NCBI GenBank assembly: GCA_041906765.1
Contig: JAYRIP010000008.1
Span: 2,898 to 66,897, forward strand
Length of the DNA stretch: 64,000 nt
Source of the DNA: Candidatus Saccharimonadales bacterium
GTDB lineage: Bacteria > Patescibacteriota > Saccharimonadia > Saccharimonadales > JAYRRP01
Reading direction: 5' to 3'
The notes below the pieces were generated by a model that made no database searches, was not told where the DNA came from, and worked only from the letters and a program-made list of their open reading frames with translations. The translations under genes and the position numbers were made by a program. Positions within the stretch are counted from its first letter, which is position 1; every line of letters begins with the position of its first letter. This document shows, piece by piece, positions 4,894 through 16,517 of this stretch.

Positions 4894-7842
4894 TTAGTCC
4901 TTATCGATAAATATAGTGTGCTCTTTTTTTGCCGAGGGATGATTTGGCTTTAGGTGAAACTCGTTTTCAGGAACAACAGCAACAGCGTCTTGGTCTTCAT
5001 GCTTTGGCGGTGAGGCTTGTGTCGGATTCGATGCAGTCTCATCTCGCGGATGGTCAGCAGCAGGGGCTGGCGATGAGTAATGGTGTATGGGCGCTGCACT
5101 ACTCTGGGCTTCCTGAGTGGAAGGTGGATTTGATAACTCAGTTCGCTGCCCAGGGGCATCCGTTGCATAATCGGCAGAAGGATCCATCTTGGGGGTAGTG
5201 TGCGCCTTTGGCGGAGGCGGAACCTGGCTTGAAGAGGAAGGCACACCCTGGCGTTTTTTGGCAAGCCATTCATCAAGGAAAGAAGAACCTGTTGAGGGCG
5301 CCTTAGCTGGAAGCGGTTGTCCCGAAGCAGCGGGCATAGGCCCTCCGAACTGCTGAGGTCTAGGCTGGCTGCTTCCGGCAGGAGCCGCAGGAGTGTAAAG
5401 CCTCGTAGTTACTTCCTTTTCAACTACTGCTCTAGGACGTCCATACTTGGCCGCAGAGAGCTGTTTGAGTGCTTTAGCGAGATCCGGGTTTTCTGATCCC
5501 ATAGGTGGCACTGTGGCCATGCTGAACGGCTGTGTAGGCACTCCCCCGATTAATATCTGTGTAATAGTATTGTAGTTGGGTAATCTCAAAATGTCTTCGC
5601 GATCAAATACCGGCTGGAACTTCCTACTAAGCGCATCGGCGTCAGCATCCGCTCCAACCCTAAAAGCTGTTATGGAACCGACATTACCAAAAACAGCGTC
5701 TCTTATTTCATCAGTAAGCTGAGTGGTGAACTGGTTTGCCACAATCAAGTTCAGTCTATATTTTCGTGCTTCGGAAAGAATGGTTGCAAATGAATCAGTT
5801 GAAAAGTTTTGAAACTCATCAACGTATAAGCAAAAATCATTCCGTCGGTCTTCAGGCATGTCTGCCCGGCTCATAGCTGCCGCTTGAAACTTCATGACGA
5901 AAATCATACCCAACAACTTGGAATTCAACTCGCCTGTTCTACCCTTACTTAAGTTCACAAACAGAAGCTTATTATTATCCATAACGTCTCGCAGGTTAAA
6001 CGCACTCTTGGATTGACCAATAATGTTGCGCATCATGGAGTTACTCAAAAATGCGCCAAATTTACTGACAAACCAACTCTTCACCTCACCAAATTCGTTT
6101 GACCGTTCTGAGCCAGGCATCTCTTTCGTCCAAAAGTCTATCACTGTCCGATCTGTGACATACTTCAACTTTTGCCGCACATAAGAGGGGTCCGAGAACA
6201 ACTTAGGGATATCAACAAAGGTGCCCCCAGCTGGGTCGGACATGACAGTAAGTGCCGCGTTGCGGAAAAGATGGTGGTAGCGTGGACCAACGATTCCCTG
6301 ATGGTTGGGATCATAGAGCTTCTCGAGCATATTAATGGCTTCCTGAATAATGAAATCTTTTTGGTCTTCATTGTGATATTCAAAGAGATTAAGCCCAAGG
6401 GGGAAATCCGTTTCTCCCGGTGAAAAATAAATCACATCTTCGGTTCTCTCTTTTGGAACCATACTCATTAGCCTCTCTGCGCTCTCCCCATGAGGATCCA
6501 CAAAAGCAAAGCCACGACCTTCAATCATATCCTGCAATGCTAAGTTCTCTAGATATACCGATTTACCCACGCCAGTTTGTCCGACCACATACATGTGACG
6601 CCGTCGGTCTTCCAAGCTTAAGCGGACAGGTTTTTTCGTGCCACGAAAAATGTTGTAACCAAGCAATAAACCTTCGTCAGGCATATTGCGAGGCCCATCA
6701 ACTTGCTTAGAGCCTTGCCTTTCAACTTGTGAAGTAGGGATATTCCGCTGGTCAGGAAAATGGAATAACGTTGCTAATTCAACAGCATTTAAAATACTTT
6801 TGTTACTTTCCTGCGGGAAAAACCGCAGAATAAATGCAGTTACGAAACTCTCTATATCCTTAGATTCGGTATACTTGAAGCCATTCTTGCCCGGCGCATC
6901 AAACAGAGAGAACGCTGCCACAATATTGCTGAGTATTGCTTGAGAGCGTTGTGCAATATTCGACGATGCCACTATCCGGATCAGCACTTCATAGGCCGGA
7001 TAACGAGTCTTATCATCAATGGCATCCACGATTGCCTGGTCCAGGCTTGAAAGTTCCGGTTTTGGCGGCGATGATTCCCCGCCTGACTTTGGTTCCGGAG
7101 GCTTGACTACCGCCAGGCCGAGCTGGCGCGCCCAACCCCAGGATCCACCTTCACCCCCTCCCTTGCCAGAGCCTTTACGCTTTTGGTTAGCTATCGCTTG
7201 AGCACTCTTTCTCCAATCTGGGCTAGCCGGGCGCAGCATAATTTGAATGCCTGCCCCATCTTCTTTATCCAATGCCGACAATGCACTCAATATAGCTTGA
7301 ATCGCGTCACGCTTAATCTCTTGATAAGTTGCAATCGGGTACGCATAGTGCTCTTTTAAGGTGAGTTCGCCTCCTAATGTGCCGCTAATGCGGCCCACTG
7401 GGCTAAAGATATTATGCTCAGGTACTTCTTCGAGCTGGGCCGCCGGATATGCGCTGACAACAGCTTGTTTGACAACGTCCACCATCGCAACCGGAACTGC
7501 CGCGTAAAAGTGTACAAAACCCTTCTCGCCAATAATTTCAAAGGCAAAGTGGCGCTGCCCATAAAACTTACTTTTAAAACCCTTCTTTAATGTACTGGCA
7601 ATAATGCTGTAGAGCACCTGTGCTTTGGATATATTCTCATCTATTACATCACGCACATCACGACCACTCTCTTCGGTATCCTCGCTGATTGGCGGCAAAT
7701 GGATCAACAATGGAATCATTTTGAGGCCTCTCTCAAAATTTTTCTGCTCGCGCAACAGCTTCCTTGATTGGAAGTAAAAGACAATACCAGTTGCTGCCAC
7801 CAGCACAAGAAGGATAACGATAACTGTCAGAAAAAAAGGCAT
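4894..7842 (-). CDS. VirD4/TraG/TraD-like type IV coupling-protein-family ATPase with N-terminal TM anchor and disordered Pro/Ser-rich C-terminus
   Basis: 982 aa. It has an N-terminal TM (FFLTVIVILLVLVAATGIVFYF), Walker A VGQTGVGKS, Walker B-like FCLYVDEFQNF, and ARKYRLNLIVANQ typical of T4CP/TraM-recognition-domain ATPases. The last ~200 aa are low complexity. Confidence 0.7.
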   Translation of the reverse strand: MPFFLTVIVILLVLVAATGIVFYFQSRKLLREQKNFERGLKMIPLLIHLPPISEDTEESGRDVRDVIDENISKAQVLYSIIASTLKKGFKSKFYGQRHFAFEIIGEKGFVHFYAAVPVAMVDVVKQAVVSAYPAAQLEEVPEHNIFSPVGRISGTLGGELTLKEHYAYPIATYQEIKRDAIQAILSALSALDKEDGAGIQIMLRPASPDWRKSAQAIANQKRKGSGKGGGEGGSWGWARQLGLAVVKPPEPKSGGESSPPKPELSSLDQAIVDAIDDKTRYPAYEVLIRIVASSNIAQRSQAILSNIVAAFSLFDAPGKNGFKYTESKDIESFVTAFILRFFPQESNKSILNAVELATLFHFPDQRNIPTSQVERQGSKQVDGPRNMPDEGLLLGYNIFRGTKKPVRLSLEDRRRHMYVVGQTGVGKSVYLENLALQDMIEGRGFAFVDPHGESAERLMSMVPKERTEDVIYFSPGETDFPLGLNLFEYHNEDQKDFIIQEAINMLEKLYDPNHQGIVGPRYHHLFRNAALTVMSDPAGGTFVDIPKLFSDPSYVRQKLKYVTDRTVIDFWTKEMPGSERSNEFGEVKSWFVSKFGAFLSNSMMRNIIGQSKSAFNLRDVMDNNKLLFVNLSKGRTGELNSKLLGMIFVMKFQAAAMSRADMPEDRRNDFCLYVDEFQNFSTDSFATILSEARKYRLNLIVANQFTTQLTDEIRDAVFGNVGSITAFRVGADADADALSRKFQPVFDREDILRLPNYNTITQILIGGVPTQPFSMATVPPMGSENPDLAKALKQLSAAKYGRPRAVVEKEVTTRLYTPAAPAGSSQPRPQQFGGPMPAASGQPLPAKAPSTGSSFLDEWLAKKRQGVPSSSSQVPPPPKAHTTPKMDPSADYATDAPGQRTELSNPPSTQEAQSSAAPIHHYSSPAPAADHPRDETASNPTQASPPKHEDQDAVAVVPENEFHLKPNHPSAKKEHTIFIDKD

Positions 7843-12449: not shown

Positions 12450-12480
12450 AAACCGCCCGGATATGGGCGGTTTATTTATG
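12450..12480. terminator. bidirectional intrinsic terminator between rplT and rnpB
   Basis: AAACCGCCC-GGATAT-GGGCGGTTT with T-rich tracts on both strands (ATTTAT on plus; ATTATTTAAT on minus). Confidence 0.7.
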
Positions 12481-13053
12481 CCAGATAATCTGTAAGCCGG
12501 GTTCTGTCTGCTTCGGCATAAGTACCAAAGCGCGCTGACCATCTATCTAGCCCAGGCGTTGCCGCCTGGATCAAGCGGATAATCGACCGGCTCTGGCGGG
12601 AAACCGCAACCATAAAGATCACTTGCGAACCGATCTCCTTGCAGCAGGCAGGGTTTACCTCTCCCAACGGTCACCCGCTAGGACTGTGGGCTCTTACCCC
12701 ACTCTTTTCACCCTTACCCAGCACCTTTCAGAGCTGAATGCTTGCCTAAATTGCACGGAAGAAGCGAAGGGCACAATAAGCCGTATATGTAATACGGTGA
12801 AGAGCACTGGAGCTTCTGACAAAGCAATTTGCCAAGAGCGCGAGCAGAGTTTGAGCTTTGCTCAAAGCAAGCTCGCTCGGCATTTAGAACTGAAAGGTAC
12901 TGGGCGGTTTTGTTTCTGTGGCACTTTCCCTAGAGTTTCCTCCGGTTGCCGTTAACAACTGCCTTTCCCTACGCTGCCCGGACTTTCCTCCCCGCACCTC
13001 AAGAAGCTCTAGCACAGCCCCTTAAGGTGCGGGGCGATCAGCCAATAATCTGG
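12481..13053 (-). ncRNA. rnpB: RNase P RNA, bacterial type A, unusually long (~570 nt; ends approximate)
   Basis: Minus sense contains GAGGAAAGUCCGGGC (plus 12976-12990), GGUAAGAGC, and CUAGAUAGAUGGUCAGCGC...ACAGAACCCGGCUUAC (plus 12492-12507). P1-like pairing CCAGAU../..AUCUGG occurs at the two ends. The overlapping ORF-track entries look spurious. Confidence 0.9.
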
Positions 13054-15832: not shown

Positions 15833-15960
15833 TTTTATCCTTGTGATGCTTTAAATATTACCTACAGAATAGCACAGTTGGGCTATACTCCTTGTGTTCA
15901 CTTTAATGTCTATTATTACCTCTCCATTATAAGCACAGAGGAGCATGTACCTTGCTTACA

Positions 15961-16005
15961 TCAAAAATCCTCCATAGCTCCGCAAGAAGCGAAGCGACGG
16001 AGGAT
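15961..16005 (-). terminator. intrinsic terminator ending the tRNA-Pro/E1 transcript
   Basis: Minus sense: AUCCUCC...GGAGGAU followed by UUUUUGA. Confidence 0.65.
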
Positions 16006-16151
16006 GGTCGGGGTGACAGGACCCGGTCACCTCTGGCGACCCCGCAATTTTCATACTTGCAACAAGTTACAAATCTGAAAAATTGCCTTGCGGGCTGCCA
16101 CTGGCAGTCCTCACCTGCGACATCACGACCCCAGCCGTAAACGGGGTACTT
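16005..16151 (-). ncRNA. structured RNA element E1 (unknown family) ending in a tRNA-Pro-like 3' end ...CACCCCGACCA
   Basis: It is homologous to 37010-37139. The joiners are identical (GGUGA, GCAAG, GAU, GUA, GGG, GUCCUG) and the four helices show compensatory changes. See findings. Confidence 0.6.
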
Positions 16152-16227
16152 TGGTCAGGGTGAGAGGACTTGAACCTCCGCTCTCTGGACCCCCAGCCCA
16201 GCGCTTTACCAACTAAGCTACACCCTG
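16152..16227 (-). tRNA. tRNA-Pro (anticodon GGG), CCA encoded
   Basis: Hand-folded cloverleaf: CAGGGUG UA GCUU..AAGC G CUGGG CUGGGGG UCCAG AGAGC GGAGG UUCAAGU CCUCU CACCCUG A CCA. Confidence 0.92.
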
Positions 16228-16246
16228 TCGTTTGTAAAGTTCTTAT

Positions 16247-16282
16247 GGGGTAATGCGCGCTAGCCAACTGCGCCACACCCCG
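16247..16282 (-). pseudogene. 5' fragment of a second tRNA-Pro-like gene (acceptor 5' strand + intact D-arm, no anticodon/T arm)
   Basis: CGGGGUG UG GCGC AGUUGGCUA GCGC G CAUUACCCC. Its acceptor strand is exactly complementary to CACCCCG-A-CCA at 16005-16015. Confidence 0.6.
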
Positions 16283-16325
16283 AGAATCGGACTCCCTTAC
16301 TATACCAAAATGCCTTACTCTTAGC

Positions 16326-16354
16326 TTAAAAAGGCACTCTGATAAGAGTGCCTT
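16326..16354 (-). terminator. intrinsic terminator downstream of the M50 protease gene
   Basis: Perfect 10-bp stem AAGGCACUCU-UAUC-AGAGUGCCUU followed by UUUUAAGC on the minus strand. Confidence 0.7.
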
Positions 16355-16517
16355 GGCAGCTGGATTACCAACCTGATTAATCTGCCTAGGGCAGATGGGT
16401 GCCTTCACTTACCCGCCACGGCCGGCAAAAATATTAGGCTCCCTTTTGTTAATCATTCAGATAATCATTGCGTTGGCATGTTCCAGCCAATAATTATTAT
16501 ACTCCCTGGATTCGCTG

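Follow-up and report, generated by a model that had tools for sequence, protein, structure and literature searches.

The tRNA-Pro(GGG) locus of the window, as the 64,000-nt stretch of DNA analysed here is called, can be interpreted with moderate confidence as a dead tRNA-Pro(GGG) gene of one sequence type (type A) that frames a functional, nested tRNA-Pro(GGG) of another type (type B) and holds a mobile structured element, E1, in its T loop. The whole of the ancestral type A gene is present, in three pieces on the minus strand. Taken by itself, the locus would amount to a pseudogene and its replacement gene, and its interest lies in the element family that it exposes. The E elements form a large family of Saccharibacteria that is apparently undescribed.

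The tRNA-Pro(GGG) locus

The features of the locus are, in the direction of reading:

16299-16307, minus strand: probable extended -10 promoter, TGG-TATAGT (read from the sequence)
16256-16282, minus strand: nt 1-26 of the outer type A tRNA-Pro(GGG), acceptor 5' strand and D arm (sequence reading)
16140-16255, minus strand: insertion 1, 116 nt, consisting of CATTACCCCATAAGAACTTTACAAACGA, the inner tRNA and AAGTACCCCGTT
16152-16227, minus strand: inner intact tRNA-Pro(GGG), type B (ARAGORN; Rfam RF00005, 66.4 bits, cut-off 29)
16114-16139, minus strand: outer nt 27-53, anticodon arm (GGG), variable region and T-stem 5' strand GCAGG
about 16023-16114, minus strand: E1, structured element of three hairpins, inserted in the outer T loop (covariance model R1)
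16005-16024, minus strand: outer nt 57-76, T-loop remnant GGGT, T-stem 3' strand CCTGT, acceptor 3' strand CACCCCG, A73 and CCA
15962-16004, minus strand: intrinsic terminator, a hairpin followed by UUUUU (fold -28.3 kcal/mol, z = -6.46)

The clean minus-sense 5' part of a tRNA-Pro recognised in the initial annotation reads CGGGGTG-TG-GCGC-AGTTGGCTA-GCGC-G from 16282 to 16256, and differs from canonical type A (L092/L103) solely by one extra C in the D loop. The 3' end, GGGTCCTGTCACCCCG-A-CCA with its last position at 16005, carries the acceptor strand that had been described as the exact complement of CGGGGUG. In 300 nt of such composition, about 2e-4 occurrences of an exact complement of CGGGGTG with N-CCA after it would be expected, so this match is not due to chance. 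The tRNA-Pro identity features C1-G72 and A73, also pointed out earlier, are present at the outer ends together with homology to tRNA-Pro(GGG). The acceptor stem is perfect in the window, and equally so in the relative L001 (93% identity of the neighbouring protease). The CCA end runs directly into the terminator, as had been seen, and the identity of the last 20 nt to the intact tRNA, given before as 17/20, is 16/20 on recount.

The outer gene had been taken to survive as two ends only; its anticodon arm, variable region and T-stem 5' strand, TACGGCTGGGGTCGTGATGTCGCAGG, are found at 16139-16114, between the inner tRNA and E1, and match TACGGCTGGGGGCCGTGAGGTCGCAGG of L001, L005 and L103. Because of the position of this piece, the gap comprises not one insertion but two, the first of 116 nt between the D and anticodon arms of type A and the second of about 90 nt. 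When the insertions are removed and the three pieces are joined, they align with the canonical Saccharibacteria type A genes of L092, L096 and L103 with 4 substitutions, a 1-nt insertion in the D loop, a 1-nt deletion in the anticodon loop, which is thereby shortened to 6 nt, and three T-loop bases missing. The relationship of the fragments to tRNA-Pro, on which the initial annotation depended, is thus borne out, as is an ancestral tRNA-Pro interrupted around a complete replacement. Uninterrupted versions, anticipated in related genomes, occur as intact type A genes in L092, L096, L103 and L022 and as an uninterrupted 5' half in L005. ARAGORN, proposed as a check, called the inner tRNA and called no tRNA in the outer gene after removal of both insertions, even in pseudogene mode. 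In view of the loop losses and of this result for the reconstruction, the outer type A gene looks dead and would be a twice-cut pseudogene.

In L001 the same nested tRNA is present, the outer anticodon arm is intact, and the outer gene reads CGGGGTG..GCGCG, the insertion, TACGG-CTGGGGG-CCGTG-AGGTC-GCAGG-T, a 26-nt hairpin (5048-5073) in the place of E1, and TCCTGT-CACCCCG-ACCA. The earlier observations stand, and so does the part of their interpretation that concerns an interrupted tRNA with a nested replacement; the single micro-element of about 250 nt gives way to two independent insertions, and the CCA that was assigned to the end of E1 belongs to the old type A tRNA. Hairpins of 26-28 nt occupy the T-loop site of E1 in the dead type A tRNA of L001, L251 and L264, and their stems vary in a compensatory manner (TAGCTCCGCGCGAAGCCGGAGCGCTG versus TAGCCAGGCACGACAGTCCTGGCGTTG).

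The inner gene, a cloverleaf with 7-nt anticodon and T loops, is called as tRNA-Pro(GGG) by ARAGORN, exceeds the RF00005 gathering score, and has a sequence (CAGGGTGTAGCTTAGTTGGTAAAGCG...) clearly different from type A. A scan of metagenome contigs with an exact 36-mer of type B yielded 21 loci, in most of which it stands alone; in L245, L246, L254, L257 and L260 it follows a 6S-like RNA and precedes an RNase H-domain gene, which is the syntenic site of the window. Judged by these sequences, type B is an ordinary allele of this locus in other Saccharibacteria, and because it stands alone at the syntenic site elsewhere, types A and B would be alternative alleles of one locus across lineages. 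The window itself is from a saccharibacterial genome, in line with the sources of the homologues of its flanking genes. Its nearest relatives, L003 and L005, carry type A. Remnants of type A also surround type B in L249, L251 and L264; in L264, which has a mismatch in the outer acceptor stem, the type A anticodon arm precedes type B, the reverse of the order found in the window. A perfect 14-bp inverted repeat, CCCCATAAGAACTT/AAGTTCTTATGGGG, brackets the inner tRNA of L001; 10 nt of this repeat are gone in the window. L020 contains an apparent A/B chimera, downstream of which lie type A nt 27-76, bearing an E in their anticodon loop. The different position of type B in L264 and the chimera of L020 suggest a recombinational history of A and B beyond a single insertion. 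A phage origin of the inner tRNA was considered and rejected, as the similarity found was merely generic for tRNA-Pro, at most 79%.

The TGG-TATAGT box, 16 nt 5' of outer tRNA nt 1, is probably an extended -10 promoter; it was not called by a sigma-70 scan that requires a -35 box. The sequence TTGGTATAGTAA of the promoter region is also found upstream in L001 and ahead of the intact tRNA-Pro in L022. Further upstream, a 6S-like RNA at 16353-16492 on the minus strand (18.7 bits, cut-off 46.4), with a terminator at 16352-16328, probably represents a divergent 6S RNA; it is conserved just 5' of tRNA-Pro(GGG) in many Saccharibacteria loci (L001, L003, L017, L022, L073, L245 and others). Another structured RNA of the window, an RNase P RNA match at 12477-13053 on the minus strand, spans 577 nt for a 367-position model and thus has large insertions, which covariance model R1 excludes as copies of E.

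The E family

E1 is scored by covariance model R1 with 79 bits (E = 1.6e-15), and a blastn hit led to a second copy, E2. Exactly these two copies are recognised by R1 in the window, and 135 matches in 712 kb of fetched loci. The two are 71% identical, at the 71st percentile of similarity, and E2 shows compensatory changes relative to E1; in three other genomes, copies from the same genome are unusually similar (92nd-99.8th percentile). A pattern derived from the conserved 5' hairpin of E returned at least 116 loci from a collection of species-representative genomes, nearly all of the matches listed being from Saccharibacteria, and found none in viral contigs. A second pattern, CAGATTT...AAGTATGA, was too unspecific, and the loci from L123 onward were left out.

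The fold was predicted with RNAalifold from an alignment (A2) of 73 simple copies of E. It comprises three hairpins with 31 pairs, 21 of which show double compensatory changes. In A2, 96.7% of the cells are paired, compared with 76% in shuffles and 29-44% in controls with slid partners; the covariation score is 0.56 versus 0.18, and double-change cells number 433 versus 116 in shuffles. E is thus a structured family with a conserved secondary structure and compensatory changes, and may act either as RNA or as folded single-stranded DNA. In its stems G-U is common and A-C is rare, which indicates that the selected fold is formed on the tRNA-sense strand. The element is about 92 nt long and follows the scheme (G)UGAG-P1-CGYAAGG-P2-CGGG-P3, with the invariant motifs GUGAG, GCC-AGU-GGC, CGCAAGG and CGGG; CGUAAGG, a rare variant of CGCAAGG, occurs in L003 and in a single copy among the 73 of the alignment.

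A search of Rfam at E <= 10 over 15850-16500 returned the inner tRNA and the weak 6S-like match only, with no match to E, and nothing was found at the E sites of 16 non-tRNA loci at gathering thresholds. Full-text literature searches aimed at E-like elements brought up no description of one. Abundant, lineage-specific and well structured, with no Rfam entry, E would constitute a new RNA family. In L051 a copy of E is separated by about 250 nt from a lysM-TM7 RNA (5587-5735; RF03005, 88 bits).

tRNA contexts of E

ARAGORN was run on the oriented contexts of E, and 61 loci were strictly classified into two layouts. Layout 1 (38 loci) begins with a 5' fragment of a tRNA, which breaks off in the D arm (18 loci), the anticodon loop (4), the T arm (13) or the variable region (3); E comes next and, after a short spacer, the complete gene of that tRNA. 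In layout 2 (the other 23) the intact tRNA and its terminator come first, then a short piece of T arm, E, and an exact second stretch of the tRNA that extends from its T loop to the CCA. The fragments are 97-99% identical to the adjoining intact gene (1200/1237 positions in layout 1 and 533/540 in layout 2), and the flanks outside the duplicated tRNA parts are no more alike than random pairs, which implies that the duplications usually stop at tRNA nt +1 or at the CCA. The truncated side is adjoined by an inverted copy of the uninterrupted target hairpin, such as CGAGTCC-TG-GGACTCGAACC at the tRNA-Arg locus of the window and CCGTGAGG-CTCACGGCCCC at Pro loci.

E lies in the tRNA sense in nearly all adjacent cases, the two antisense to the tRNA fragment being those of L015 and L032. 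Several copies occur in one broken tRNA copy in L073 and L017, and tandemly amplified E units are found in L092, L019 and L020. At the tRNA-Pro(GGG) locus of different species, E is located in the D loop, in the anticodon loop, or in tandem units. A few copies lie outside tRNAs, each still on a closing stem. Two arrays may be mentioned in addition: in L020 (200-1150, minus strand) five copies of E are found within 1.1 kb around tRNA-Pro(TGG), followed by the tRNA-Pro(GGG) resembling an A/B chimera, and L033 (6150-6700) contains a non-tRNA array in which the spacer TGGGCACCTCT...AAAAAAGGTCAGTAGAGGG is repeated and one unit has a large internal insertion.

Two further tRNA loci of the window show related arrangements:

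37141-37193, minus strand: exact copy of tRNA-Arg(CCT) nt 1-53, a 5' fragment ending in the T stem (53/53 identical)
37047-37140, minus strand: E2, the second copy of E (R1, 73.5 bits, E = 2.5e-14)
37010-37046, minus strand: T-loop remnant CGAGTCC, inverted uninterrupted T arm (GGACTCGAACC) and a TATAAT box
36933-37009, minus strand: intact tRNA-Arg(CCT) (ARAGORN; Rfam)
29581-29710, minus strand: inverted T-arm piece GACTCGAACC, element F and a 22-nt copy of the tRNA-Val 3' end, downstream of tRNA-Val(GAC) at 29839-29763

The Arg repeat begins at tRNA nt +1, and the succession of the CGAGTCC remnant, the inverted T arm and TATAAT recurs at other loci. At the same place a relative with a 77% identical PH-domain protein (L273) has a clean tRNA-Arg(CCT), with neither E nor the fragment, and L269, an 89% relative, has no tRNA at this site. 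E is thus polymorphic as an insertion, as judged from L001 and the window at the Pro T loop, from L273 at the Arg site, and from the varying sites at the Pro locus. Between tRNA-Arg and the gene that follows it, a stretch of 250 nt (36681-36932, minus strand) contains remnants resembling tRNA ends and P3 (CTCTACCA, TTCAAGAATCC, CGGGCTCGCCAAAGG); L269 has only 57 nt in their place.

At the Val locus the 22-nt copy at 29602-29581 is exact. Element F, of about 100 nt, forms two hairpins (fold -54.9 kcal/mol, z = -4.1), has no match in Rfam and is not E according to R1; only two strict copies were found by regular expression. F-like copies follow the type B tRNA-Pro in L259 and L248, and the first hairpin of the copy in L248 carries the E P1 motif GCCAGTGGC. 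At the Arg and Val loci a tRNA segment is directly repeated out to the gene end; no such repeat is present at the Pro locus.

Origin of the locus and alternative explanations

In the model that we favour, the 278 nt would be one transcription unit built on the dead type A gene, which was cut between the D and anticodon arms by the 116-nt insertion that brought in the complete type B gene, and again in the T loop by E1. E would be a non-autonomous mobile element landing in the hairpin loops of tRNAs. Each hit by E would destroy the tRNA copy concerned, and therefore the arrangements that persist would be those with an intact tRNA alongside. This companion is usually a partial tandem duplicate, and at the Pro locus its part would be taken by the nested type B gene, so that an essential single-copy gene survives the hit by means of a different allele nested inside the wreck. 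Transcription may start at TGG-TATAGT and end at the terminator after the old CCA, and the type B tRNA would then be freed by RNase P and 3' trimming, with E1, on the old T stem, remaining in the 3' by-product. E has no linked transposase, integrase or reverse transcriptase, and neither terminal inverted repeats nor short target duplications are evident by eye at its junctions; it is thus from the distribution of E that we infer its mobility.

It could also be that E is itself the selected product, within a functional composite RNA in which the T stem, acceptor strand and CCA persist because they scaffold its processing, stability or recognition. We regard this as improbable, although several observations speak for it. 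The covariation of E is strand-specific and has the same sense as the tRNAs, in whose sense E lies in nearly all adjacent cases; copies outside tRNAs always sit on a closing stem; and the acceptor stem of the outer gene is perfect in the window and L001. The identity of 97-99% of the E-adjacent tRNA fragments beside unrelated flanks keeps the scaffold reading alive, as it could mean that the fragments are selected and are not junk. However, the 5'-fragment copies have no 3' acceptor strand, and E is absent from the Pro T-loop site in L001 and from the Arg site in close relatives. The 6-nt anticodon loop of the window, the loss of half of the flanking repeat and the acceptor mismatch of L264 further argue that the outer gene is not a selected scaffold.

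The junctions in anticodon and T loops and the repeats that run exactly to the tRNA end recall tRNA att sites, of which they are the hallmark. The fragments could accordingly be attL/attR duplications left by a tyrosine integrase, with E as the leftover arm of a deleted element, and an att-type scar was among the proposals of the initial annotation. Fragments of tRNA genes originating from integrative elements are already known (PMC9897764). The E loci resemble these in having a partial copy beside an intact gene and a repeat ending at the tRNA terminus, but differ in that the DNA between the repeats, about 100-250 nt, has no recombinase, junctions in the D arm are common (18 of the 38 5'-fragment junctions), and a structured 92-nt element accompanied by an inverted copy of the target hairpin occupies the junction. 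Moreover, the repeats are merely about 130-250 nt apart with no kilobase-scale element between them, E is located inside the loop itself, the E pattern is absent from the viral contigs searched, and direct repeats are missing from the Pro locus. The genes called within 4 kb on either side of the protease gene in the syntenic L001 locus include no integrase; the neighbouring genes are those for a peptidase, AIR synthase, RNase H and ribosomal proteins. The fit to an att-type scar is therefore loose, and such an origin seems quite unlikely. Removal of E as an intron, so that the interrupted tRNAs still work, is less credible again, to the point of being nearly dismissible. Patescibacteria are rich in tRNA introns (PMC13011429), and these group I introns share with E the phylum and an insertion into tRNA loops that hides the genes from annotation tools. 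They are self-splicing and located in the anticodon loop, with a functional tRNA remaining, and include newly described introns of tRNA-Asn and tRNA-Asp at position 35/36 (PMC13011429). In contrast, E measures about 92 nt, has no match to group I introns in Rfam at E <= 10, occurs in three different loops and marks broken copies. Its excision would leave a T loop with neither U55 nor C56, a product that ARAGORN rejects, and among the 61 strictly classified loci the copies bearing E are usually truncated and adjoined by an intact gene of the same type. The Pro locus of the window is the exception with regard to truncation, as all three outer pieces survive.

The outer gene also resembles a tmRNA, since an acceptor stem with CCA, formed by its two ends, encloses a long interior. 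Unlike in tmRNA, this interior consists of a full tRNA and tRNA arms, and a tmRNA was rejected because neither ARAGORN nor Rfam called one and the acceptor stem has G3-C70 and not G3-U70.

Among known repeats, the mobile E of the favoured model may be compared with the selfish palindromic repeats of reduced genomes, such as the Rickettsia palindromic elements and the mitochondrial double-hairpin elements. These are short, multi-copy, hairpin-forming, non-coding and lineage-restricted, and are tolerated inside genes, including RNA genes. E is likewise short, multi-copy, non-coding and lineage-restricted, forms hairpins, and belongs to a host-dependent bacterium with a small genome. It differs from them in its invariant loop and junction motifs, its three-hairpin fold with strand-specific covariation, its strong preference for tRNA loops, and the associated partial tRNA duplications. 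The link between E and tRNA loops, together with duplications that stop at tRNA ends, points toward a novel mechanism of insertion or copying. The boundaries at nt +1 and CCA and the inverted hairpin copies could mark a tRNA-templated copying, with loop insertion followed by template switching, a mechanism that would be unlike any known transposase, integrase or intron. It is a tentative and rather doubtful reading, of which this mechanism would be a part, that E and the related F represent a new class of RNA-structured mobile element using folded tRNAs or tRNA genes as landing sites.

For the annotation of these roughly 1-Mb genomes, it is of importance that three of the six tRNA genes of the window are accompanied by a partial tRNA copy with a structured element next to it, an arrangement that can mislead tRNA annotation. 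The E loci also break assemblies, and many copies of E lie at contig ends. At the Arg locus, the contigs returned by an exact-protein look-up break within the duplicated tRNA segment or just 5' of the gene.
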